The notes: generated from the sequence alone by a model not told the origin. A stretch of 33,542 bases of DNA from Bacteroidota bacterium (GCA_028288545.1 JAQBNQ010000298.1:1-33542), one strand, 5' to 3'. Positions 1 to 22,810 are shown, counted from the first letter of the stretch. A program made the numbers and translations.

Positions 1-4128
<4,128 letters not shown>

Positions 4129-4140
4129 AATTTTTAAACC

Positions 4141-4163
4141 GGGCAGGGCCGCGGGCCCTGCTT
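4141..4163 (+). terminator. GC-rich hairpin just after the fibre gene stop (possible weak or partial terminator)
   Basis: gcagggcc (4143-4150) pairs with ggccctgc (4154-4161) around loop gcg. Only a 2-nt T tail follows before an A-run, so it may be an attenuating or stabilising hairpin rather than a full terminator. Confidence 0.35.
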
Positions 4164-4176
4164 AAAAAAATAAATT

Positions 4177-4872
4177 ATGAAAAAGAAAAATTTTATAACC
4201 CTTATGGCAATAGTTGCTCTGGGTTTATCTGCAAACGCACAGCAAGCGGATGCAAAAGTTACTCAAGCTTCTTTAAAAGGTGCTGGTAACAAAAATTTTG
4301 CTGCTGAACATTCACGTTCGGTTGATCAGAAAATAGCTGAAGAAAAAGCAGCCCGCCAGGCAAAAACAGCCGAATTGCAGAAAAAGCGTTCGGAAGAAGT
4401 TACGGCTAAGGCTAAAAAAGACAGAGTTATGATGACTCCACAAAAGTCTAATGCACCTGCTCAAAAAGCTACCCAAACCGCAGAGGTAAAGACTGTAACT
4501 CCGGTTTCAGCTCAACCACATGTAGCAACCGTTAAGCCTGTAAGAGACGAAGCGGCTATACGTGCAAATGCTGAAAAGCAAAGAGCACAAAAGGCACAAA
4601 ACGTTCAGAAGCCTGTAAGCAAGACTTCTAATAAGGTTGTAGCGCCTTCTTCAAAAGACACAAGGGTTCAAAACACTACAGCAGCTACAACAACAACTGC
4701 CTCAGTTAATGCTAAGCCTAATATGACTAACGAAGAGCGCGTTGCTCAAATGAACGAGCGCAATGCTGCAATACATGCTAAAGAAAAACAAAATGCAGCT
4801 GCCGCAAATCACGCACCAGTGAAGCCGGTTCAAAAAACATGGCCAACTGAAGAAAAGAAGGCAACTAAGTAG
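4177..4872 (+). CDS. Secreted low-complexity K/A/Q/T-rich protein, probably intrinsically disordered
   Basis: ATG at 4177 with signal peptide MKKKNFITLMAIVALGLSANAQ. The rest is strongly biased (AKAKKD, QKAQNVQKP, TTAATTTTAS) with no recognisable domain. It lies 48 nt downstream of the collagen/C1q gene and is followed by a strong terminator. Confidence 0.6.
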   Translation: MKKKNFITLMAIVALGLSANAQQADAKVTQASLKGAGNKNFAAEHSRSVDQKIAEEKAARQAKTAELQKKRSEEVTAKAKKDRVMMTPQKSNAPAQKATQTAEVKTVTPVSAQPHVATVKPVRDEAAIRANAEKQRAQKAQNVQKPVSKTSNKVVAPSSKDTRVQNTTAATTTTASVNAKPNMTNEERVAQMNERNAAIHAKEKQNAAAANHAPVKPVQKTWPTEEKKATK

Positions 4873-4893
4873 TTGATTTTTAAAGCAATATTT

Positions 4894-4927
4894 AAAAAGG
4901 CCGGCAATTTTGCCGGCCTTTTTTTTA
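4894..4927 (+). terminator. Rho-independent terminator
   Basis: A perfect 13-bp stem, aaaaaggccggca (4894-4906) with tgccggccttttt (4911-4923), encloses loop attt. The T-run continues to ~4926. Confidence 0.85.
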
Positions 4928-5232
4928 TGGTTTATGTTGATATAATTTGTTGCAACAAATACTTTGGAGTTATTGTTTTTTTGTAATTTTAAATAAAGAA
5001 ATACGCTCAAAGGCCGCTCGGAATGACTTGTGCGTATGGAAGGATTCTTTAAACCTAACGTTGGAAACCTTTTTTTTCAAAAAAATCGGATTGCTTTAAC
5101 AGTTGAAGTAGAATTTATTTGTGGCGGTACCCGGCAAGGTTTCGTATTGATGCTTTTGACAAAATAGGGCAATAAGAATTCGAATTTTAACTAATACCCA
5201 TTAACCACATTACTTAACTTAAAACGAAAAAC

Positions 5233-5757
5233 ATGAAAAAAACTTGTCTCATATTTTGCGTGTTGGCGGCGCCTTTTTTTATGAAGGCTCAAATGCTTAC
5301 ACCTACGGTAATATCAAGTACTGGCGGCTTTTCATCTAATGCCAACGGAAGTTTGTCTTACACGGTTGGCGAGATGACAATGGTGCAAACTTTTAGCGCC
5401 AACGGCAATATTCTTACGCAAGGCTTTCAACAACCAACAGATACCAACTTCCTGGGCCTGTTGGACCTCACTCAATCTGACTTTGGTTCTTTTGTTGTTT
5501 ATCCAAATCCGGCTGTAGACATTACTTCGTTCGGATTTCAATTACCAGAAGCAGGGCGGGTTTCGATATCCCTGTATAATGATCTTGGACAAAAGGTTTC
5601 AGACGTTTACAACAGCAATTATGAGAATGGAAAAACTGTTCAGCAAACGGATGTATCGAGATTTGCTTCGGGTATCTATTTCATGACAATGACCTTCACT
5701 GCTGCTAAAGATCAACAAACACACATCATTACTCAAAAACTGCAAATACTTAAGTAA
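5233..5757 (+). CDS. T9SS-sorted mini-protein (174 aa): signal peptide, ~75-aa conserved N-module, Por/T9SS C-terminal sorting domain
   Basis: Signal peptide MKKTCLIFCVLAAPFFMKAQ. The N-module is MLTPTVISSTGGFSSNANGSLSYTVGEMTMVQTFSANGNILTQGFQQP. The C-terminal ~85 aa are VVYPNPAVD...LYNDLGQKV...GIYFMTMTF...QKLQILK, typical of type-A T9SS CTDs. It is a paralogue of 8632..9153. Confidence 0.85.
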   Translation: MKKTCLIFCVLAAPFFMKAQMLTPTVISSTGGFSSNANGSLSYTVGEMTMVQTFSANGNILTQGFQQPTDTNFLGLLDLTQSDFGSFVVYPNPAVDITSFGFQLPEAGRVSISLYNDLGQKVSDVYNSNYENGKTVQQTDVSRFASGIYFMTMTFTAAKDQQTHIITQKLQILK

Positions 5758-5790
5758 CCCCATTATTTTTTCAACCCTAAATTAAGACCA

Positions 5791-8487
<2,697 letters not shown>

Positions 8488-8515
8488 TTGATTTAAGCAA
8501 ATTTCAGAAGGTATT

Positions 8516-8550
8516 AAAACCTCCGCCACAAGCGGAGGTTTTTCTTTTTT
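8516..8550 (+). terminator. Rho-independent terminator
   Basis: aaaacctccgc (8516-8526) pairs with gcggaggtttt (8532-8542) around loop cacaa. A T-rich tail runs to 8550. Confidence 0.85.
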
Positions 8551-8631
8551 ACCATATCTGAGCGGTCTAAAAATATTTTTTGGAAGTATAATTCCAAAAT
8601 ATTTATTTTAACGCCCTAAAATTTAAATATC

Positions 8632-9153
8632 ATGAAGAAATTTTATCTTATTCTTTTAGTAGCTGTATCTACGGGTTTGAAGGCTCAAATGCTAACCCCA
8701 ACCGTAATTTCAAGCACAGGAGGTTTTTCATCTAACGCTAACGGAAGTTTATCTTACACGGTAGGTGAAATGACAATGGTGCAAACCTTTAGCGCCAATG
8801 GTAATATACTTACACAGGGTTTTCAGCAACCAACAGATACCAACTTTTTAGGTTTGCTTGACCTGACACAAAGCGATTTCGGATCTTTTGTTGTTTATCC
8901 AAATCCGGCAGTAGAAGTAACTTCGTTCGGATTTCAATTACCTGAGCCGGGAAAGGTATCCATAGTTCTGTATAATGCTATTGGCCAAAAGGTATCCGAT
9001 TTGTACAGTGCAAATTATGAGAGCGGAAAAACCGTTCAACAAACCAATGTTTCGCGATTTGCAGCGGGAATGTATTTTGTGACTATGACCTTTACTTCAT
9101 TTAAGGATGAGAAGACGCATATTCTTACTCAAAAACTACAGGTAATTAACTAA
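8632..9153 (+). CDS. T9SS-sorted mini-protein (173 aa), paralogue of 5233..5757
   Basis: A signal peptide is followed by the same 78-residue block (KAQMLTPTV...VVYPNPAV), identical at protein level to the first copy. The T9SS CTD has diverged (VSIVLYNAIGQKV...GMYFVTMTF...QKLQVIN). Confidence 0.85.
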   Translation: MKKFYLILLVAVSTGLKAQMLTPTVISSTGGFSSNANGSLSYTVGEMTMVQTFSANGNILTQGFQQPTDTNFLGLLDLTQSDFGSFVVYPNPAVEVTSFGFQLPEPGKVSIVLYNAIGQKVSDLYSANYESGKTVQQTNVSRFAAGMYFVTMTFTSFKDEKTHILTQKLQVIN

Positions 9154-9188
9154 TCACCCATTTATAAAATTCAATTAAAATCAAGTAC

Positions 9189-11105
<1,917 letters not shown>

Positions 11106-11126: not shown

Positions 11127-11158
11127 AAGGGGATGATTTTTGATCATCCCCTTTTTTA
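11127..11158 (+). terminator. Rho-independent terminator
   Basis: ggggatgat (11129-11137) pairs with atcatcccc (11143-11151), followed by tttttt. Confidence 0.8.
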
Positions 11159-11260: not shown

Positions 11261-13219
11261 ATGTCCCCCGAACAACATACAACGGAGTTATCAGCCGAAG
11301 CAAAGAATGCAATTATCAGGATCAATGGTTTTTTTAAAAAGATCAGGTATTCCGCCAAAACAGTTGAGGCAAACAGCGAAGCCCCTGGGCCGGTAGTATT
11401 AACAGATGAATTTCTGGAATTTAAGCAATTACTACTTGTACTTATAAAGGATGCAGATTTTACCGTTGCTTTTACACATAGTGGTATTCCGCAGGGAGCA
11501 TCTTTTACTGACGAAACTCTGCGCATTATCAAAAACAAAATTCTGCCTTATCTCCATAGTCCAAAAGAGGCGGGAACTATAATCCGCAGCATTTTCAATC
11601 ATTCCGGTGACCATCAAAGGCTGGTCTCCTTGTTTGCAACCTTTAAACTGCTGACGGATTATTTTGGTGAAGAAGAGAAGAAGGAAATATTAGCACTATT
11701 CAATGTTCAGCTTACTAATGCAGTAAAAATAATTTCATACCGGATCGCTGCACTGGGAATGGATGAAGATGTGTATGTGCGGGCGGGCAAAGACGATGAG
11801 TTGATTACTCCTTTTATGGAACAAAACCGCGAGGTAAATGAGTTGCTCATAAACCTGCAAGAGGGAAGTGCTGAAAAGGCCGCTGAAGATATGGGCCAGA
11901 TAAAAGTAATGATCAGGCAATGCCGGGCAAATATTGCGGTAATTGATAAAGCTGCAGAAAGCAATGGAACCTCATTGCACCAAACCTTTGTGCTGCGCAA
12001 ACTGGAATTATTGATTGAGCGCATGGAGCAGATACTGCCAATAATTTGTTGCGAGGATGTTGAATCGGAGTTTAAAAATTTAAGCGACCTTATTTGCCAT
12101 ATAATTCTGCTTGAAACAAAGCCCAAGAAACTGAGGGATTTTATATCGCGCAATATAAAACTGATATCGTACCGTATAACCGAAAACAAGCGAAAGACCG
12201 GCGAACATTATATATCCTCAACATCTGCCGAATATTGGGAGCTTTTCTTGTCGGCCTGTGGTGGTGGCTTAGTGGTTTCATTTATGGTGATAATTAAATT
12301 GCTGGCCCATGAGGCGGGGCTGCCTTTACTGTGGGAGGCGCTGCTTTATTCGGTGATTTATGCCACAGGCTTTGTGGTAATACAAGCGCTGCACTTTACA
12401 CTGGCTACCAAGCAACCAGCCATGACCGCAGCATATATTGCCGCCTCACTTGATGACATGGGCGATGACAGGTCGCGGCACGAACATTTTGCTGCCACTA
12501 TTGCAATGGTTTCGCGCAGTCAGTTGGTATCTTTTGCCGGGAATTTGCTGGTTGTATTTCCGCTTACGTTGTTATGGGTTTTTCTTATCAGTATTGCTAT
12601 GCACCGTTCTTTCATTGAACCTAAGGCGGGCCAGGAATTGCTCAGCGCGGTACACCCGGCTTATTCTCTTTCCTTTTTGTATGCTTCTATTACAGGTGTG
12701 TTTTTATTTGCGGCGGGTATTATTTCGGGTTTTGGCGATAACAAGGTTGTAGTAAGTAAAATTGGCTTGCGTATAGAAAATCATCCTTCACTGAAAAAGA
12801 GAATTTCGGCAAAACGATTACATGGTATTGCCTCGTACCTGGAAAGAAACTTAGGGCCCTTATTAGGAAATATAATTTTGGGATTTATGTTAGGCTTTGC
12901 AGGGTTATTCGGAAAGATTACGGGTCTTCCGTTTGATATCCGGCACATTACCTTTAGTACGGGAAACATGGCTATGGGGTTTTATGGTGTGGATTTTCAG
13001 ATTACTTTGGGATTACTTTTTGCTTGTATAACGGGCATTTTCATCATTGGGCTTTTTAATTTTGTAATCAGCTTTTACCTGGCGTTACAGGTGGCCGCCC
13101 TTTCACGGGGAATTAGTTTAAAGGATTATCCGGGATTATTGAAAGCAGTATTGCGATACTTTAAACATCATCCAATGCATTTCTTTTTTCCGCCAAAAGC
13201 ACAGAAAAATGCTTTTTGA
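11261..13219 (+). CDS. Large membrane protein (652 aa from ATG 11261): helical soluble N-half plus polytopic C-half. Resembles the Gcr-like 'putative site-specific recombinase transmembrane protein' family (Pfam SpecificRecomb), function unknown
   Basis: The ORF track starts at TTG 11219, and the first ATG is at 11261 (MSPEQH...). The C-half has multiple hydrophobic helices and the conserved-looking motifs TGEHYISSTSAEYW, LATKQPAMTAAYIA and LPFDIRHITFSTGNMA. The family call is from memory of these motifs and was not searched. Confidence 0.8.
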   Translation: MSPEQHTTELSAEAKNAIIRINGFFKKIRYSAKTVEANSEAPGPVVLTDEFLEFKQLLLVLIKDADFTVAFTHSGIPQGASFTDETLRIIKNKILPYLHSPKEAGTIIRSIFNHSGDHQRLVSLFATFKLLTDYFGEEEKKEILALFNVQLTNAVKIISYRIAALGMDEDVYVRAGKDDELITPFMEQNREVNELLINLQEGSAEKAAEDMGQIKVMIRQCRANIAVIDKAAESNGTSLHQTFVLRKLELLIERMEQILPIICCEDVESEFKNLSDLICHIILLETKPKKLRDFISRNIKLISYRITENKRKTGEHYISSTSAEYWELFLSACGGGLVVSFMVIIKLLAHEAGLPLLWEALLYSVIYATGFVVIQALHFTLATKQPAMTAAYIAASLDDMGDDRSRHEHFAATIAMVSRSQLVSFAGNLLVVFPLTLLWVFLISIAMHRSFIEPKAGQELLSAVHPAYSLSFLYASITGVFLFAAGIISGFGDNKVVVSKIGLRIENHPSLKKRISAKRLHGIASYLERNLGPLLGNIILGFMLGFAGLFGKITGLPFDIRHITFSTGNMAMGFYGVDFQITLGLLFACITGIFIIGLFNFVISFYLALQVAALSRGISLKDYPGLLKAVLRYFKHHPMHFFFPPKAQKNAF

Positions 13220-13444
13220 ATCTAAAACAGGATTTAGGCGAAACAATCTAAAACACATGTTCGTTTTAACAATATGTAGCCGTTTCGGTGATTGGAATTT
13301 AGTAAAATTATATTTTTCTTCGCTAGCTTTATAGATTAACATCCTTTGGGGCATATTAGATGAAACAATTTGTCAATTTTAAATTGGCTGTTTGTTTCCT
13401 TAATTGTTGATTCCTCAGACGAGCAATTTAAAGCTACCAGAAAA

Positions 13445-14791
13445 ATGATATTTTTTGATAACATAAGAAATCGGATATCCGAAGCGAAACAATCAAAATC
13501 GTTGTTAGGATGGTTTTTTGATAATGGGTTGTGGAAAACTTCTGCCAGTTCTCCCGAAATAGCCTGTACAAAATTTTTCGGGTTTGCTCTATTGGCTATT
13601 GCGATTCCCCTTGTAATTGTAACAAAGCCAGACCAGACATGGTTTTTAGATATACTGAATATTATGTTTTTGGCCTTTATAATTCTGACCTTGAAATTCA
13701 GGGAGCAGTTTACTCTTTCGCCGGACGACCCTGTGATAAGAAAGATGCTGCATGTAGAAAACTGGAAACAAGAAGATTCAAAGCTGGCTGTAGAGGAGGC
13801 GGCAGAAAATGGTAACCAGGCCATAAGGCAATTTAGTTCAATTAAGCAGTTTTGGATAGGCAGCCTTTTGTTGTATGTTTTAATGCTGGTTAGATCCTTA
13901 ATTACATCCCGCGATCTACGCAACTGGCTAAAAGGCCATCCTCACTATTGGGATATTTCTTACTTGTTTTATTCAACATATCGCGAAAGCATTGATAAAT
14001 TCGGTAACGACGTTTTTCAGATAGGTTCGGTACTGCTTTCAAACTTGGCGGTGTACGGATTAATACTTGGCTTCTATGTATTATATTATCCTTCCACCGG
14101 CTTCAATAATAAAGCGCACAAAGAGAATACTTCGTGGTGCCTGGTGGGTATAGTTGTTTTTTCGATTTTGCATGGATTAATACTTCTGCAATACCTCAAA
14201 ATTGGAACTGACGGAGCGTTTCTCTTCGAAAAAACAGCAATGGATATAACGCTCATGGCGCAGTTTTTTAGTGGGCTTATAAACACGGTTGCCATGGCAT
14301 TTTTTATTGCACGTTTTGCGAGCCCGTTATTGCGTATACCAGCTATCGTTCAAGCCATTCTTTTTCTATACACAATTCTTCAAACAGGGCTAATGATAGT
14401 GCTAATGGATGGTAGCAATAAGGATTTTATTTTTTTACATGATTTGTGGCTGCCCTGGGCGCAAAAAGGGATATTGCTGTTTTGCTTATTCGGTAAGATT
14501 GTATTGTATCTTGTGGTACTCTACTTATATACGACTGGTAAATTATTCTTTTATTTTGTATCCATGAGAGCCTTCAAACGTACCTCCGACCTGGAATGGT
14601 CTGAGATTATAGAAAATATCGGTAATTTCTCGTTTGATGAACGAAAGCTTTATATGCAGTATTATTCAATACAGGTTGATGGCGATAACCACCAGAGGGC
14701 CTATTTAGAAGATTATCCGGAGATTGAAGCGGAAGGCAACAGCATTACACAGATTGAAACTGAATTAAAGAATAAGATTTTGGGAGATTAA
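13445..14791 (+). CDS. Polytopic (~8 TM) membrane protein of unknown function, paralogue of 14809..16410
   Basis: The ORF track starts at TTG 13370, and the first ATG is at 13445 (MIFFDNIRNR). About eight hydrophobic segments are present. The block TLMAQFFSGLINTVAMAFFIARF...ILFLYTILQTGLMIVLMDG...GKIVLYLVVLYLYTTGKLFFYF aligns with the next gene. The C-tail is short and acidic. Confidence 0.8.
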   Translation: MIFFDNIRNRISEAKQSKSLLGWFFDNGLWKTSASSPEIACTKFFGFALLAIAIPLVIVTKPDQTWFLDILNIMFLAFIILTLKFREQFTLSPDDPVIRKMLHVENWKQEDSKLAVEEAAENGNQAIRQFSSIKQFWIGSLLLYVLMLVRSLITSRDLRNWLKGHPHYWDISYLFYSTYRESIDKFGNDVFQIGSVLLSNLAVYGLILGFYVLYYPSTGFNNKAHKENTSWCLVGIVVFSILHGLILLQYLKIGTDGAFLFEKTAMDITLMAQFFSGLINTVAMAFFIARFASPLLRIPAIVQAILFLYTILQTGLMIVLMDGSNKDFIFLHDLWLPWAQKGILLFCLFGKIVLYLVVLYLYTTGKLFFYFVSMRAFKRTSDLEWSEIIENIGNFSFDERKLYMQYYSIQVDGDNHQRAYLEDYPEIEAEGNSITQIETELKNKILGD

Positions 14792-14808
14792 ATGAAAGAT
14801 TAAAAGAG

Positions 14809-16410
14809 ATGAGCGCAACAGGAAGCAATAAGTTGATAACCTTTGGAAGTTGGATGTCGGAAGGGCAGGAGCTGATGGAAAAGCTGCTTGGACCGGTTGT
14901 TTTGTTAACTGAAATATTTCTTACTTTTTGGGAGAAGGTTGATCAGAGAAATATTGCAATTTATGCGATTAATATTTTTTTTATTTCAATGGTTTTATAC
15001 TCCCGGCCACTTAAGCACCTGTTTTATTTAAAAGCGAAACGTCAAAAGATTCCGGATCCACAAGCAAGGTATCACCCTTTAAAGCTAACGTATCAAAATC
15101 TTATCCCTCACGAAAAACTCCAGGAATACACGGAGTATGCGAATCTTTGCATTTTCTATTTTGGTAAAATAAGATGGTTTTGGCGGGTTACGTTATGGTT
15201 GTATGTATTGCTTTTTACTAAAGAAATTTTGGTTAAATCGATAGCTATTGACCTGGGAAATAGCCCTCTGTTTATTAAGATTTTTGACATAATCACAACG
15301 GCTGTTAATACCGGTAGTGCTTACGGGTTAATTCTGTGTTTCTATTCCTTGCATTCTGCGGAACTTCTTTCTAACCGGGATATTACGCCGGAAAAAATGG
15401 CCAGATGGTTTTGGTTTTTCTTCGCCGTACTATTTCTTGTCCATTGTTCAATCTTAAGTTGTGACGTTTCGTGGATCGCCAATAATAAAATTACCTGGTT
15501 ACAAGGCATTACACACTTTGTTATTGATCCTGATAATGTTCACGACATTAACATGTTGGCCCAATTCGGATCGGGTTTGGCGGTGGCGGCATCATTCGCA
15601 TTCCTCGTATCCCGATTCGAAATTACTTTAATGGAAATTCCTATTTATTTTTTGGTGATATTATACCTCTATGCTGCTCTTCAAACATCCTTAGTTTGGG
15701 TACTTATAGATACCGGAGGGAAATTCGGAAAACTGTGGGAGCATTTGCAAAATGCTGTATTAAGTATGTGTCTTTTAGGAAAGGTAGGGTTATATTTAAC
15801 CACCCTGTATATCTATTCTTCAGGTCGGCTGTTTTATTATTTTCTGCGTATCCGGCAGGAACTGATGCCAAGGCAGTTTATTGTATGGAAAGATGCGGCT
15901 AAAGGTATTGGCTGGAACCCGGTTACAATAAGACGTGGTAAATTGTTTCTTGAAGATAAGAAAGAACTAACTGAACGGTTTTCGATATACCAAAAAATGC
16001 TTATAAAGACAGAGCAGCAAAGGCAACTGAGTCGAAGAAACGAGAGAATAAAACTTTGGAAATATCTTCCGGATGATACCTCAGACCAAAAGCTTTCGGA
16101 TAAAAAGAATTCGGAATATTTCAATATTCTAAATGAATTGGATGCGGTTGATACCCATACTCTACGAATTGCGCACCGGTTAGCTGAACAGGAAGGAGGG
16201 ACTATTAATATTTCCGATTTGAAAGAGGAGTTGATGTTTAAGGACGATCTTGTCGAAATTATTCTGAATAAATTAATGACTTTGGGGCTTGTAAGATTTT
16301 GGCCAGAGGGTCTTGCTAAAGCGGGTCCAATTGTACCGTTATTAAGTCATGATAGTTTTCAGTTAACCAGCACCGGCAAAGAGGTGATTGTTGGTTATTT
16401 GGACACCTGA
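14809..16410 (+). CDS. Polytopic (~8 TM) membrane protein with ~190-aa cytoplasmic tail containing a charged linker and a winged-helix-like domain
   Basis: ATG at 14809, 17 nt after the previous stop. The paralogous block is NMLAQFGSGLAVAASFAFLVSRF...ILYLYAALQTSLVWVLIDTG...GKVGLYLTTLYIYSSGRLFYYF. The tail is KKELTERFSIYQKMLIKTEQQRQLSRRNERIK followed by HTLRIAHRLAEQEGGTINISDLKEELMFKDDLVEIILNKLMTLGLVRFW (wHTH-like pattern). Confidence 0.85.
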   Translation: MSATGSNKLITFGSWMSEGQELMEKLLGPVVLLTEIFLTFWEKVDQRNIAIYAINIFFISMVLYSRPLKHLFYLKAKRQKIPDPQARYHPLKLTYQNLIPHEKLQEYTEYANLCIFYFGKIRWFWRVTLWLYVLLFTKEILVKSIAIDLGNSPLFIKIFDIITTAVNTGSAYGLILCFYSLHSAELLSNRDITPEKMARWFWFFFAVLFLVHCSILSCDVSWIANNKITWLQGITHFVIDPDNVHDINMLAQFGSGLAVAASFAFLVSRFEITLMEIPIYFLVILYLYAALQTSLVWVLIDTGGKFGKLWEHLQNAVLSMCLLGKVGLYLTTLYIYSSGRLFYYFLRIRQELMPRQFIVWKDAAKGIGWNPVTIRRGKLFLEDKKELTERFSIYQKMLIKTEQQRQLSRRNERIKLWKYLPDDTSDQKLSDKKNSEYFNILNELDAVDTHTLRIAHRLAEQEGGTINISDLKEELMFKDDLVEIILNKLMTLGLVRFWPEGLAKAGPIVPLLSHDSFQLTSTGKEVIVGYLDT

Positions 16411-16477
16411 AGCTATAAATACTCCCTGTAAAAATTCATTTCAATATTAATTTCATTTGTAGTGAACGCAAAATGAA

Positions 16478-16717
16478 TTGGACAGTGATGGGTTTAAAAA
16501 GCTGGTCAATTATCTTTCCATCAATGAACCGCTTCCTTGCGCGTTTTATCCGGTTTCGCCCACGCCATATTTAAATGGTGGGCCAGAAGATTATTTATCC
16601 CGGATATTGGAGTCCAAATCTATAGATTTTAACCAGGACCGGATGGCTGATTGGCTTGAATCAAGGTTGCCATCGCCGGTTAGCGACCTGGCCCAATGGA
16701 ATGCAGGGGCTAATTAA
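16478..16717 (+). other. Orphan 79-codon reading frame with no in-frame ATG until codon 56; possible small CDS or gene remnant
   Basis: The only candidate start is a TTG. The translation looks protein-like (PEDYLSRILESKSIDFNQDRMADWLESRL) but matches no motif I recognise. Confidence 0.2.
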
Positions 16718-16739
16718 TCCTTTCATTAATGTTTCCCTG

Positions 16740-17583: not shown

Positions 17584-19203
17584 ATGTCTCACTCCGAACT
17601 TAAGCCCAGGCAGAAGATGATAAACCTCATCTACCTTGTTCTTACAGCCATACTTGCTCTCAATGTTTCGGGCGAGGTGTTGGACGCCTTTAAAACCGTT
17701 AACGACGGCATTGGCAATTCCAACACCTCCCTTAAAACAAAAAATTCCGACATCTATACCGATTTTGGGACGCAGTTCTTAAACGATTCCGCCCGCGCAG
17801 AAAAGGCTTATAAAAAGGCATTGCAGGCAAGGGCCTTATCTGATAAGCTTTATGTTTTGCTGGAGCAATACAAAAAGCAAATGGTGACCGAAGCGGGTGG
17901 GATTGATCCTGAAACCGGAAAAATTAAAAGAGATGATGACATTAATGTTTCAACGGGGCTATTTGTTGAAAATGAAGGCAAGAAAGGAAAAGAACTTAAA
18001 AAGGAAATAGAAAATACGAGGCAGGATTTGCTGAATCTTTTAGAAGCGCAGGATAGAAAAGAGGCCGAGCAATCGTTTGCGTTAAAAATTGATGGCGCTG
18101 TTCCGGGCAAAACGTGGGAATACGCGAAGTTTAATAGTGTGCCCGTAGTGGCAGCAGTAACCTTGCTTACAAAATACCAGAATGATCTGCTAAGTGCCGA
18201 AGGTAATGTGGTGGCTAAGCTGTATAGTTCGGTTTACAAAAACGTGGATAAGGTAGATCGCTTTGCGGCTAAGGTGATAGCACCCGGTAGTTATATTTTA
18301 CAGGGAGAATCATACAAGGCCGACGTAATGGTAGCCGCTTATAATTCTACCAAGGACCCTGAAGTTTTTTTGGGGCAGTTTACTCCCGATGTTAAAGCCG
18401 ATCCGGATGGCGGCTATAAAATGATAGCCTCTGCAAACGAGGCTTTGCCATTGGTGAACCCTGTAAAGGTAGATGTGCAGCACGGCATAGGTAAATTGGC
18501 CATGGCCGGCGCTGCTACCGGCAACAAAAAATACACGGGGGTTGTGCGGGTAAAAAATACGGATGGCGTATATAAGTTTTTTCCGTTTGAGGGCCAATAC
18601 CAGGTGGCACCGAAAACGGCAGTGGTTTCGCCAAAGATGCTGAACGTATTATACATTGGTTTGGATAACCCCGTGGATGTAAGTGTGCCTGGCGTTGCAC
18701 AAAGTGACGTAATTGCAACTTTTGAAGGAGACGGGAAGTTAGTGGCTTCAACCGATGGCGGGTTCAAGGCCCTGGTTACTACTCCCGGAACTACCAAAGT
18801 TAAAGTGAGTGCAAAAATTGACGGCAGGGTTGTACCGATGGGAGAGAAGCAGTTTCGGATAAAGAGGATTCCCAATCCTGTGACCACGATAGATGGAATT
18901 TCGAGTGGCGGTACAGCCACCGCCACGTTTATTGATCAAAGAGCAGGCGTTGTTCCAAAGTCGGATGATTTTATTTATGGATCATTGCCATGGAAAGTAA
19001 TAAAGTATGTGGTATCCATTCACAAAGGAATGGATCTATATAAAATTGAGAACGAAGGCCCCGTATTTAACCAAAAGATAAAAACGCTAAAGAAGGGTTT
19101 GAAAAAAGGCGATACCTTTTTTGTTGATGAGATAATAGTAATGGGCCCCGACCAAAAGCAAAGATCTATTCCCCCACTAGCGTACAACATAACGGCGCAG
19201 TAA
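17584..19203 (+). CDS. gldM: Gliding motility / T9SS motor protein GldM (PorM)
   Basis: The N-terminus LKPRQKMINLIYLVLTAILALNVSGEVLDAF closely matches the conserved GldM/PorM N-terminal TM signature (TPRQKMINLMYLV...ALN.S.EVL.AF). The 539-aa size is appropriate, and gldN follows. Confidence 0.9.
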   Translation: MSHSELKPRQKMINLIYLVLTAILALNVSGEVLDAFKTVNDGIGNSNTSLKTKNSDIYTDFGTQFLNDSARAEKAYKKALQARALSDKLYVLLEQYKKQMVTEAGGIDPETGKIKRDDDINVSTGLFVENEGKKGKELKKEIENTRQDLLNLLEAQDRKEAEQSFALKIDGAVPGKTWEYAKFNSVPVVAAVTLLTKYQNDLLSAEGNVVAKLYSSVYKNVDKVDRFAAKVIAPGSYILQGESYKADVMVAAYNSTKDPEVFLGQFTPDVKADPDGGYKMIASANEALPLVNPVKVDVQHGIGKLAMAGAATGNKKYTGVVRVKNTDGVYKFFPFEGQYQVAPKTAVVSPKMLNVLYIGLDNPVDVSVPGVAQSDVIATFEGDGKLVASTDGGFKALVTTPGTTKVKVSAKIDGRVVPMGEKQFRIKRIPNPVTTIDGISSGGTATATFIDQRAGVVPKSDDFIYGSLPWKVIKYVVSIHKGMDLYKIENEGPVFNQKIKTLKKGLKKGDTFFVDEIIVMGPDQKQRSIPPLAYNITAQ

Positions 19204-19222
19204 AAGAAACGCAGAAATAGCG

Positions 19223-19248
19223 GGGCGCAATGTTACTTTTTTGCGCCC
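19223..19248 (+). other. Hairpin in the gldM-gldN spacer
   Basis: gggcgcaa (19223-19230) pairs with ttgcgccc (19241-19248) around a 10-nt loop. There is no proper T-tail, so it is probably not a full terminator. Confidence 0.3.
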
Positions 19249-19273
19249 TTGCATTATATAAGAAACCACTTTT

Positions 19274-20104
19274 ATGATGACCATTAAAAAGATTGCCGGC
19301 ACTATTGTTTTAATCCTGGCGCTGCAAAACATTTGGGGACAGAGTGCCCAACAACAAAATCCATGGCAGGAACGGGACCGGAAAGATGCCCAGCCGTTGC
19401 CACATGAATATCAAAGAGAGGCGGATGTTTTTTGGAGCAAAAATATCTGGAGGATAATTGATACCCGCGAAAAAATGAATAAACCTTTCGAGTATCCTCA
19501 ACAACCCCTGATACAGATAATTCATGAGGCTGCAAAAAGGGGTGAAATAACTGTCTACGATCCGGCGGTGCAGGATGCTGACCAGTTTAGAAAAGTAATG
19601 GATACCAGCGAGGTAATTTCAATGGGTACGAAAATTGATACCACTATTCAATCCTTGCCAGAAAATCCGGATTCGGAACAAACTGTTATTGTTCGCAATG
19701 AATTGACCTGGGATAAGATCAAAAAATTCCGAATAAAGGAGGTTTGGTTTTTTGATACTAAAACCTCGGCAATGCAGGTGCGCATTATTGGAATTGCACC
19801 CGTTATGGAAGACTACGACGCACAGGGAAATTATCGCGGAGACATGACCATGTACTGGGTTCCTTTTGAGCAGATGCGTGGCCTATTAGCAAAGCGCGAA
19901 GTATTTAATCCTCAAAATGACTCAAAGCGGTTTAGTTGGGAAGACCTTTTTGAAATGAGGAAGTTTGAAAGCTACATTTATAAAGAAAGCAATGTGTACG
20001 ACCGTAACGTACAGGAATATGCCACAGGTGTTGATGCGCAAATTGAAAGTGAACGGATTAAGCAGGAATTATTTGAAAAGGAGCATGATATGTGGGAGTA
20101 TTAA
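19274..20104 (+). CDS. gldN: Gliding motility / T9SS periplasmic ring protein GldN (PorN)
   Basis: It has a signal peptide. The motif region READVFWSKNIWRIIDTREKMNKPF...IKEVWFFDTKTS is typical of GldN, and it sits immediately downstream of gldM. Confidence 0.8.
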   Translation: MMTIKKIAGTIVLILALQNIWGQSAQQQNPWQERDRKDAQPLPHEYQREADVFWSKNIWRIIDTREKMNKPFEYPQQPLIQIIHEAAKRGEITVYDPAVQDADQFRKVMDTSEVISMGTKIDTTIQSLPENPDSEQTVIVRNELTWDKIKKFRIKEVWFFDTKTSAMQVRIIGIAPVMEDYDAQGNYRGDMTMYWVPFEQMRGLLAKREVFNPQNDSKRFSWEDLFEMRKFESYIYKESNVYDRNVQEYATGVDAQIESERIKQELFEKEHDMWEY

Positions 20105-20920: not shown

Positions 20921-22810
20921 ATGCAAAAATGGCGTAATACAATTTTGGTATGGATGCTTCATGCCGTCTTATCTGCATTAATTGCCTGGAGCGTTTTATT
21001 CAAGGGGGAGTTTAGTGTAGTAAAGAGTTCTCTTTTTCACTTTGCATTGGTGTTGAGAAGCATTAAGGACGCCCTCATTTATGTTTTGAAAGAAGATTAT
21101 AGCCAATGGGTGGTTTCTTTTCATTTTACCGGCATTTTTTTATTCCTTTTTTTACGGGTAGTCCCCTTCGGAATCCTTATAATATGGGTTTATAGGCGCA
21201 CTCCTTTTAAAAAAATATCTTATGCTTATCATTCGTTTAAGTCCTTTGCTTTAAAGGTAAAGGGCCTTATTATTTATGATTTTCTGGAAGCAGATGTATT
21301 TGTTCTCTTCTTGATTTTTTTCTCATCCTGGATGATATCTCAAATGTTGATTTATCTTATTGCTCAACAAAAGATGGATTATTTAGTTTTAATGGAGGGT
21401 CAATTCGTACAAGGGAAAATTGTAGTTTGGGGGTGTTATTTATTTGCTTTGATCGCAATTATAGCAAGATGGCAAAGTTTCAAAAGCAGGTGTAAACGTT
21501 TTTGGGGACACAAGATTTTTCCACATGGGCTTTCATTGTTTAGGATATTATTTTTTTTGGAGGAAATACAAGTGCTCTTTTATGATAAAACAGTTTTAAT
21601 TCACCGGGTTGCTCCACCTGGTGTTCCGTTGCAGCCGATGGAGTTTACGGGTTGGTACGCGAACCTTTTACCAGCAAACCAGGAAATTTATAGTATGGCC
21701 TGCATATTGGCGATTGTTGCTTCCGCCTTTGTTGTACTTGGGTTTATGACACGTTTATCGCTTATCACTTTAACTGTGCTCGCATTTTATGTTTACGCTA
21801 TGCCAAATATGTATGGGAAAATTAACCATAATCATATTCATCTCTGGATACCTTTGATATTGATTTTCACTCCTTGTGCTGAGGTATGGAGTTTGGATGC
21901 GCTAATAAATAGATGGCGGGGAAACAGACAAATTGTAGGATTATCTTCGGCTTATTGGCAGCCGTTGGCAGCTATTTATATGATTCTTGGAGTTATGTAC
22001 ACATTTTCGGGATTGCGTAAATTATGGGATTGCGGTTTTGCCTGGGGTTTGAGTGATCATTTTATATATCAGATACAGGAGGAATGGATTGAAAATTATA
22101 AGATAGTGCCAGCCCTAAGAATAGATCACTATCCTACAATTGCAAAAGCCGGGGGAATGGGTATAGTAATATTCGAAATATTATATCTGGGACTTATCTT
22201 TTATCCGGTGGGCAGATGGATTGCTTGTATTGGAGGACTTGCGTTACATAATCTGGCAGGATATTTTATGAATATTGATTTCGCCGATTTACAAAAAGTA
22301 TACTTTTCGTATTTAACGCCGTTGGTCAAAAGAAAAGAAAGTTTCTATGGTCAAATTGATTCGCTGAAATCTTCATATAAATTTTATTTCATCCTGGTAA
22401 TTCTTTTAACTGGTAATATAGTCATGTCTTTATGGGGCAAAACCTCTTGGCCTTTTTCGCCATATCCTTCTTATTCTACCTTGGCTCCAGGTACAACCAC
22501 TATTATTAAATTTGAGGCGCTAGCTGCAGACGGTACAAGAATTAACATAGATAGTCTTGCTCAAACAAGCGGCTTTCGCAAGGAAACCTTTCGGCCGCTT
22601 GAAGAAGAATTAATAAGAATAAAAGATTCTGACACAGCGATACTGCAACGAAGCGCGTGGAATTTGTGGTCGAATTGGTCGGGCTTTTTACCACCATTGG
22701 CTGGTTTTAAAAAAGTTGAAGTGTATGCAGTGACGTTTCCTGTAGCGCCGGAACGATATAATGAAATTGTAAAAAAGGAATTGCTGACAACCCTTGATTT
22801 AAAGAATTAA
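20921..22810 (+). CDS. Polytopic membrane protein (629 aa); central/C-terminal part is HTTM-like (vitamin K-dependent gamma-carboxylase-type horizontally transferred TM domain)
   Basis: It has many TM helices. The segment LSLFRILFFLEE...ILAIVASAFVVLGFMTRLSLITLTVLAFYVY...HIHLWIPLILIFTPCAEVWSLDALI follows the HTTM pattern as I remember it. No search was done. Confidence 0.7.
   Translation: MQKWRNTILVWMLHAVLSALIAWSVLFKGEFSVVKSSLFHFALVLRSIKDALIYVLKEDYSQWVVSFHFTGIFLFLFLRVVPFGILIIWVYRRTPFKKISYAYHSFKSFALKVKGLIIYDFLEADVFVLFLIFFSSWMISQMLIYLIAQQKMDYLVLMEGQFVQGKIVVWGCYLFALIAIIARWQSFKSRCKRFWGHKIFPHGLSLFRILFFLEEIQVLFYDKTVLIHRVAPPGVPLQPMEFTGWYANLLPANQEIYSMACILAIVASAFVVLGFMTRLSLITLTVLAFYVYAMPNMYGKINHNHIHLWIPLILIFTPCAEVWSLDALINRWRGNRQIVGLSSAYWQPLAAIYMILGVMYTFSGLRKLWDCGFAWGLSDHFIYQIQEEWIENYKIVPALRIDHYPTIAKAGGMGIVIFEILYLGLIFYPVGRWIACIGGLALHNLAGYFMNIDFADLQKVYFSYLTPLVKRKESFYGQIDSLKSSYKFYFILVILLTGNIVMSLWGKTSWPFSPYPSYSTLAPGTTTIIKFEALAADGTRINIDSLAQTSGFRKETFRPLEEELIRIKDSDTAILQRSAWNLWSNWSGFLPPLAGFKKVEVYAVTFPVAPERYNEIVKKELLTTLDLKN

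Follow-up and report, generated by a model that had tools for sequence, protein, structure and literature searches.

A rare, uncatalogued family of eight-helix membrane proteins represented by a paralogue pair next to a PF10136 gene on a Bacteroidota contig

In this study, we analyzed three adjacent genes for membrane proteins at positions 11261–16410 of a contig from a Bacteroidota bacterium (GCA_028288545.1 JAQBNQ010000298.1:1-33542), which was investigated at its full length of 33,542 nucleotides (nt), referred to as the window in the following. The three open reading frames (ORFs) are located on the plus strand at the coordinates given by an earlier description of this DNA (sequence-only reading): gene 1 at 11261–13219 (652 amino acids (aa) from ATG), gene 2 at 13445–14791 (448 aa from ATG), and gene 3 at 14809–16410 (533 aa). 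The mechanical ORF of gene 2 begins at TTG 13370, and the gene call in the public database comprises 448 aa. Genes 2 and 3 are separated by 17 nt. The sequence-only reading had combined all three genes in one inserted, terminator-bounded module. According to the results described here, the block consists of two independent units, gene 1 on the one hand and the pair of genes 2 and 3 on the other. Gene 1 codes for an ordinary PF10136 protein that is widely conserved, and it is an independent neighbor of the pair, while genes 2 and 3 are a lineage-specific paralogue pair of a rare family of proteins with eight transmembrane (TM) segments that is not catalogued.

Genes 2 and 3 share 29% identity over 354 aa (E 3e-27) and are true paralogues as had been proposed, with the aligned blocks quoted at that time lying within this alignment; also the estimate of about eight TM segments for each protein was confirmed. 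No family was found for either protein in Pfam, NCBIfam, or PADLOC, and profiles of the 8-TM family had no significant match in the PDB. Both proteins therefore stay outside characterised transporter and enzyme families as far as covered by Pfam, NCBIfam, and PDB searches, as the sequence-only reading had expected for them. A word-indexed search of 5.8 billion clusters retrieved a single relative for gene 3 (P0002) and none for gene 2. The family was revealed only when 1.84 billion representatives were searched exhaustively with an HMMER profile; 448 sequences passed a cut-off of E ≤ 1e-3, of which 100 also passed E ≤ 1e-10 and 20 passed E ≤ 1e-30. Profiles A1 and A5 define the family; genes 2 and 3 themselves seeded the profile, and the search retrieved independent members with E-values as low as 1e-73. 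The 8-TM domain is real, rare, and uncatalogued.

Genes 2 and 3 both show a full-length profile match together with the invariant R, Y, Q, and K of the family. In gene 3 numbering, these residues are R269, Y288, Q292, and K325, with R340 being nearly invariant, and according to the alignments gene 2 retains the invariant R, Y, Q, and K. The family motif reads AR...LYxYAxLQ(T/P)...GK(I/V)...G(R/K)LFYYF, a signature located in the last three helices (TM6–TM8). The plus-strand gene 2 (13445–14791) encodes the 8-TM domain and a short acidic tail and has no DNA-binding domain. In gene 3, the 8-TM core domain covers residues 1–338 (14809–15822, plus strand) and is predicted to have both termini inside. 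The termini of the domain are placed in the cytoplasm because several relatives carry a DNA-binding domain at the N-terminus and gene 3 carries a putative one at the C-terminus; the counts of K and R fit the positive-inside rule for this topology. The AlphaFold2 (AF2) model of gene 3, based on an alignment of three sequences, was poor, with a predicted local distance difference test (pLDDT) value of 48, and Foldseek matches to seven-TM receptors (G-protein-coupled receptors) were disregarded for this reason.

Only gene 3 has a long C-terminal tail. Its first part, residues 339–445 (15823–16143, plus strand), comprises a basic juxtamembrane segment with an isoelectric point (pI) of 11.4, a K/R-rich helix (about residues 381–417), and an acidic linker, as derived from AF2 secondary structure and charge analysis. 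Residues 446–533 including the stop codon (16144–16410, plus strand) correspond to a predicted MarR-like winged-helix domain, for which Foldseek returned OhrR, MarR, PefR, and MepR at probabilities of 0.9–0.99. The match of the tail to the Pfam family MarR_2 was sub-threshold (E 0.041, 14.5 bits, cut-off 27), and pLDDT values of residues 441–533 were mostly 60–76. The earlier proposal of a winged-helix-like domain in gene 3 only is therefore supported, at a level below the standard for family membership. An OmpR-type Trans_reg_C domain was found by Pfam in neither gene 2 nor gene 3.

The architectures of the relatives provide further information on this family. About 30 of the 150 top relatives contain two tandem copies of the domain in proteins of 800–1100 aa. 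Since these proteins represent the fused counterpart of the adjacent genes 2 and 3, a heterodimer was inferred for the latter; by this analogy, the arrangement suggests that the functional unit is a dimer, and the retention of all invariant core residues in gene 2 was also taken in favor of this. A uniform layout is present in 13 of 149 relatives: an OmpR-type Trans_reg_C winged-helix domain, matched by Pfam with E-values as low as 4e-18, occupies the N-terminus, and the 8-TM domain comes after it. A few others have N-terminal EAD1 (three proteins), EAD11 (one), TIR_2 (one), or HNH (one) domains. From the idea of a membrane-embedded sensor or effector, these OmpR-type winged-helix, EAD1/EAD11, TIR, and HNH fusions lend support to the part concerning genes 2 and 3, and the part in which all three genes act as such a system was not borne out.

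Further conserved segments were observed at the C-termini of relatives. In the subgroup closest to genes 2 and 3 (P0126, P0128–P0137, P0144, P0154), a cytoplasmic tail of ~75 aa with the pattern Y.A.IP.LF..G.G.TP.EAK.DL is conserved; it has no Pfam match, and a hidden Markov model (HMM) of it finds neither gene 2 nor gene 3. A HicB/UPF0150-like reading of the tail motif in gene 2 and its closest relatives was dropped on these grounds. Tandem-domain relatives of ~1000 aa (e.g. P0142, P0150–P0156) end in a Cys-containing consensus of ~120 aa (...CD...CES...PYCKY), likewise without Pfam match, which could be a metal-binding cytoplasmic domain.

Genomic neighborhoods of the family were also inspected. 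A tighter subgroup alignment led to one genome locus and three metagenome loci, which are too few for neighborhood statistics. In L007, from a Pyrinomonadaceae genome, GAF-HD and STAS genes are neighbors, in L009 an esterase and a flavin oxidoreductase gene. In L001 (4589–11134), P0002 has on one side a PLP-dependent decarboxylase-like gene of the unusual length of 904 aa, together with an overlapping gene for a 248-aa membrane protein; the gene on the other side resembles HsdR/type I restriction helicases by eye only.

Gene 1 is a full-length member of PF10136 ('SpecificRecomb'/Gcr-like) with a Pfam E-value of 8.7e-171 and 569.9 bits at a cut-off of 24.6, residues 53–644 aligning to profile positions 45–639 of 639; the sequence-only reading had named this family correctly. 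The motif LATKQPAMTA starts at residue 381, and FDIRHITFSTGN at residue 558. The protein has more than 1,500 relatives, the closest one with 64% identity, and the few named ones belong to Chitinophagales or other Bacteroidota metagenome-assembled genomes, the contig itself being Bacteroidota-like. An alignment of 57 sequences including gene 1 contains 47 invariant columns, by definition all kept in gene 1, and the AF2 model derived from this alignment is all-helical with a mean pLDDT of 84.4. The N-terminal half of about 320 aa is all-helical and cytoplasmic, the C-terminal half is polytopic and FNT-like, and the first hydrophobic segment lies near residue 330, in agreement with the earlier description of a soluble half of ~330 aa followed by a polytopic half.

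Searching the PDB with the gene 1 model using Foldseek yielded FocA (9g49) and PfFNT (6vqq, 6vqr, 7mxy) as the only high-probability matches (probability 0.9–1.0, target TM-score 0.44–0.58, about 350 columns), and at a pLDDT of 84 the model shows the FNT/aquaporin-like six-TM fold. Among the 57 aligned relatives, 21 matched the FNT profile PF01226, with E-values from 1e-5 to 1.7e-7 at best; at 23–31 bits, all 21 remained below its gathering score of 34.6 bits. In each of ten relatives examined singly, residues about 320–470 were collinear with PF01226 positions about 14–140. Gene 1 itself had no match to PF01226 at E ≤ 0.1 and is not a member by gathering score; a comparison of the PF10136 profile with the single E. 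coli FocA sequence by hhalign was uninformative, and a profile search revealed no significant sequence relative of PF10136 in the PDB. It was concluded that the membrane half is a divergent FNT-like channel domain, and gene 1 most likely encodes a gated channel or transporter-type membrane protein and not a recombinase. The statement that none of the three genes shows a transporter signature thus turned out to be wrong for gene 1, given the fold match and the weak PF01226 matches in 21 of 57 relatives.

PF10136 proteins are labelled 'site-specific recombinase' in several sources (P0005–P0123; L012 4803–6854; L013 1629–3617). Scans with Pfam and NCBIfam found no recombinase, integrase, or resolvase family in gene 1, and no literature on the function of PF10136 or Gcr was found. 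The name is doubtful because a recombinase family match is missing and the membrane half is FNT-like, so the reservation already expressed in the sequence-only reading was justified for a protein of which one half is a polytopic membrane domain. The name is probably a historical mis-annotation that was propagated. With an FNT-like fold of PF10136, the label would probably be wrong for many database entries, and a channel function can be tested.

Comparison with other genomes separates gene 1 from genes 2 and 3. Among the gene 1 relatives with 60–62% identity on long contigs, PF10136 occurred alone in every case examined, followed in the 3′ direction by uvrB, dinB, a gene for an M3 peptidase, an MGMT-type domain protein, or a PKD protein. 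By tblastn and family HMM, no homologue of genes 2 or 3 was found in the loci of the nearest gene 1 relatives, and conversely no PF10136 gene was found in five loci of the gene 2/3 family (L001, L007–L010). There is no homology between the 8-TM family and PF10136 according to hhalign (probability 0.2%). In two relatives (L005 and L006), PF10136 is preceded by a T9SS-tail gene (61–66% identity), a collagen/C1q gene, and coll638 (55%, 383 aa). These upstream orthologues are arranged as they are in the window, whose downstream genes are all absent there, and synteny stops directly after gene 1. Because of this conserved synteny with the upstream fiber genes, gene 1 belongs to the left-hand block and hence to no inserted module. 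Housekeeping genes surround PF10136 in Acinetobacter and Sulfurovum; a single-sequence locus scan of reference genomes with gene 1 gave no match.

Base composition was considered with regard to the claim that the block is more AT-rich than its surroundings. Total GC content is 0.421 for gene 1, 0.384 for gene 2, 0.385 for gene 3, and 0.419 for the window, so that the claim applies to genes 2 and 3 and not to gene 1. The deficit of genes 2 and 3 is found in codon positions 1 and 2 and is explained by the amino acid composition of membrane proteins. At third codon positions (GC3), genes 1, 2, and 3 have values of 0.416, 0.411, and 0.385, compared to 0.435 for gldN, 0.413 for lspA, and 0.419 for dnaX. 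Synonymous codon usage in a leave-one-out comparison resulted in z values of 1.5, 0.3, and 3.9 for genes 1, 2, and 3, which is inside the spread seen elsewhere (gldM 9.4, 1016-aa ORF 4.4). With respect to GC3 and synonymous usage, the block is indistinguishable from the rest of the contig. Neither a tRNA nor an Rfam element was detected in scans of the region, direct repeats at its flanks were not convincing, and matches to PADLOC-DB v2 defense models were only at chance level (E 0.006–0.023, 12–13 bits). A location of genes 2 and 3 in a defense island or mobile element was not seen, their neighbors being fiber/T9SS genes and gldMN with native codon usage, and no relatives of these genes were found in viral contigs or plasmids. 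The hallmarks expected for an inserted accessory module, such as a tRNA, convincing repeats, or a PADLOC match, are thus missing.

Upstream of gene 1, an intrinsic terminator is located at 11127–11153 on the plus strand, with a 12-bp stem containing five G-C pairs, a 3-nt loop, and a subsequent TTTTATT. It closes the upstream collagen-like gene (9189–11105) and sets the 5′ limit of the gene 1 transcription unit. The description of the block as terminator-bounded therefore holds at the upstream end, while no terminator was found 3′ of gene 3. Between genes 1 and 2, there is a spacer of 225 nt (13220–13444, plus strand), which is A+T-rich (GC 0.31), contains no predicted terminator, and is where the promoter and regulatory sequences of the gene 2/3 pair probably lie. 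Within this spacer, a near-palindrome of 18+18 nt, GAAACAATTTGTCAATTT t AAATTGGCTGTTTGTTTC, was found at 13362–13398, i.e. 47–83 nt 5′ of the gene 2 ATG, with complementarity at 14 of 18 positions. An equal palindrome occurred in only 1.35% of spacer shuffles, and as RNA the element has a folding energy of −14.3 kcal/mol (z −2.4). A function as terminator was rejected, the element being A+T-rich and lacking a T-tract; from its sequence it is a candidate for an operator of a dimeric winged-helix protein or for a hairpin in the 5′-untranslated region.

The flanks are as the sequence-only reading had described them: a collagen/C1q and type IX secretion system (T9SS) tail cluster precedes the block, and gldM-gldN lie beyond it. 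On the 5′ side of gene 1, there are three collagen-repeat genes, of which one ends in a C1q domain, as well as two small genes whose products carry T9SS sorting domains. This cluster (window 4–11105; L005 535–7895; L006 1–2912) is conserved in order and sequence directly 5′ of PF10136, and in the window its collagen-repeat genes are interleaved with the small T9SS-sorting-domain genes. The collagen/C1q gene deviates strongly in codon usage (z 25.8), probably due to its Gly-X-Y repeats. On the other side, a gap of 329 nt separates gene 3 from a convergent ORF of 232 aa, in which a lipobox-like LIASC is present, and gldM, gldN, and lspA come next. The gap (16411–16739) has a coding-like GC content of 0.41 compared to about 0.30 in other intergenic regions, and at 16478–16717 on the plus strand it contains a TTG-initiated ORF for a predicted acidic soluble peptide of 79 aa, for which tblastn found no counterpart in the loci of the compared relatives. 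The genes gldM and gldN at 17584–20104 (Pfam E 9e-45 and 3e-70) lack gldK and gldL directly upstream, where the convergent lipoprotein-like ORF and then gene 3 are located. Normally, gldKLMN form one operon, and the gldMN genes of the window may be a second copy or belong to a rearranged locus. Between lspA and dnaX, a 629-aa ORF (20921–22810) has a low GC3 of 0.347 and no Pfam family at E ≤ 0.001.

Taking these results together, our preferred interpretation is that genes 2 and 3 encode a polytopic, heterodimeric sensor resembling transmembrane transcription regulators (TTRs), to which we assign a probability of about 0.4. The two products would pair in the inner membrane as heterodimer, like the single-chain tandem relatives. 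The conserved R, Y, Q, and K residues, presumably buried in TM6–TM8, could be the site at which a signal or ligand from the membrane or envelope is perceived. Via the basic juxtamembrane helix of gene 3, this signal would reach the MarR-like winged helix in the cytoplasm and be turned into transcriptional regulation from the membrane, with the palindrome upstream of gene 2 as possible target. Several points weigh against this interpretation. The heterodimer is deduced by analogy, no reliable model of the membrane core was obtained (pLDDT 48), so that the buried polar site is predicted from sequence conservation, and the winged-helix call combines a sub-threshold Pfam match with a fold match from a model region of moderate confidence. 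With a pI of about 5, this domain is acidic, as is its putative recognition helix (pI 4.3), which leaves DNA binding putative; of the Trans_reg_C domains checked in three relatives (pI 5.2, 5.8, and 8.1), two are similarly acidic. In addition, no counterpart of the gene 3 tail was found in 149 relatives, the majority of family members has no output domain at all, and the EAD1, EAD11, TIR, and HNH fusions are typical of effectors of conflict systems (PMC7159879). The five related loci contain single copies without conserved neighbors and hence give no functional clue from context.

The last-mentioned fusions are the starting point of the main competing explanation, which assigns genes 2 and 3 to a conflict system (anti-phage or abortive infection) as its membrane effector or sensor-effector. 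Once the system is triggered, the 8-TM domains would bring about disruption or depolarisation of the membrane, and the sensing of invader DNA or the control of expression would fall to the winged helix of gene 3. The typical role of EAD1 is to recruit effectors, and putative pore domains with multiple TM segments have been noted in such systems (PMC7159879, PMC8195603). The explanation can also refer to the HsdR-type-helicase-like gene adjoining P0002, assigned by eye only, and to the rare, fast-diverging, and patchy occurrence of the family across phyla (Bacteroidota-like contig, Acidobacteriota genome). However, no PADLOC model was matched, the window has no defense genes beside genes 2 and 3, the neighbors in L007 and L009 are no defense genes, codon usage gives no sign of recent acquisition, and among the scanned representatives about six conflict-type fusions are opposed to 13 winged-helix fusions; together with the missing relatives in viral contigs and plasmids, this makes a conflict system unlikely here. 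A sensor fits better than an effector because one and the same membrane domain is joined to varied partner domains (winged helix, TIR, HNH, EAD). Ranked behind it, and unlikely as well, is a pseudo-symmetric heterodimeric transporter, channel, or membrane enzyme, acting e.g. on a lipid or envelope precursor, in which the gene 3 tail would be regulatory or protein-binding and no DNA binder. Invariant polar residues inside TM6–TM8, the tandem-duplicated or paired membrane domains typical of transporters, the acidic winged helix, the many members without signaling domain, and the envelope and gliding/T9SS genes nearby are in line with it, but Pfam, NCBIfam, and PDB gave no similarity to transporter or enzyme families, conserved metabolic neighbors are absent, and recurrent bona fide OmpR-type DNA-binding fusions are unusual for transporters.

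The view that genes 1–3 are a single horizontally inserted three-component membrane module acting together was derived from their adjacent position on the same strand with no terminator predicted between genes 1 and 2, from the polytopic nature of all three products, and from the lower total GC content of genes 2 and 3. Against it stand the missing co-occurrence in both directions, as a three-gene unit was seen neither with gene 1 relatives nor with gene 2/3 relatives, the synteny of gene 1 with upstream fiber genes, the PF10136 genes among housekeeping genes in distant phyla, the 225-nt spacer, the inconspicuous GC3 and codon usage, and the lack of a tRNA or convincing att-like repeats. The missing co-occurrence and the inconspicuous GC3 and codon usage are two outcomes that the sequence-only reading itself had named as speaking against it. 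The module view is very improbable and already largely refuted; for this genome, it means that no three-gene defense module is present. A wider reading, doubtful at present, would regard the 8-TM domain as an unrecognised, phylogenetically scattered dimeric receptor of the membrane state, existing as homodimer, tandem, or split heterodimer, wired to transcription by OmpR-type or MarR-like winged helices and to immune outputs by TIR, HNH, and EAD adaptors, and used in common by signaling and anti-invader systems, and PF10136 proteins as FNT-derived gated channels. If true, the latter would overturn a widely propagated annotation.

If the sensor interpretation is true, membrane-tethered transcription factors, which are known to be common and are mechanistically poorly understood, would gain a new type of polytopic sensor domain with genes 2 and 3, and the links of the 8-TM domain to TIR, HNH, and EAD proteins would tie it to bacterial immunity. 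The pair would be a natural split heterodimer beside single-chain tandem versions, which is convenient for tests of sensor signaling.

Among known systems, the FNT channels (FocA, NirC, PfFNT; PF01226) share their fold with the modelled membrane half of gene 1, which is distinguished from them by its additional helical N-terminal domain of ~320 aa. The invariant H562 and T389 of gene 1 in the motifs RH(I)T and KQPAMT are, by eye only, candidate counterparts of the central pore His/Thr of the pentameric FNT channels. Within PF10136, no feature sets gene 1 apart. For genes 2 and 3, EAD-linked conflict effectors (Kaur et al. 2020, PMC7159879) and TIR/TM effectors are comparable insofar as some 8-TM relatives carry EAD1, EAD11, TIR, or HNH N-terminally; genes 2 and 3 themselves have no EAD, TIR, or HNH domain, and no STAND, vWA-MoxR, or GTPase core genes are located nearby. 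The fold of MarR-family proteins (MarR, OhrR, MepR) matches residues about 446–533 of gene 3. In contrast to the soluble MarR dimers, the gene 3 domain is part of a membrane protein and has an acidic putative recognition helix. Regarding membrane-bound regulators, ToxR, CadC, and TcpP consist of an OmpR-type winged helix and one TM segment, and BcrR of a helix-turn-helix and four TM segments. The N-terminal Trans_reg_C domain of the ToxR/CadC type is missing in genes 2 and 3 and present in 13 relatives, in which it likewise precedes the membrane domain. TTRs are common, are enriched in Bacteroidota, and in 27% of the cases have three or more TM segments (PMC10269533). With about eight hydrophobic helices, gene 3 has at least one transmembrane region, as is required of TTRs (Demey et al. 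2023), and as in ToxR, CadC, TcpP, and BcrR, a DNA-binding-type domain would be tethered to a membrane sensing part in one polypeptide. It differs from these regulators in that the weakly supported winged helix, with putative DNA binding, is C-terminal and MarR-like, the membrane part is a non-Pfam 8-TM domain without periplasmic sensor domain, and the protein is paired with a paralogue, gene 2, that has no DNA-binding domain.

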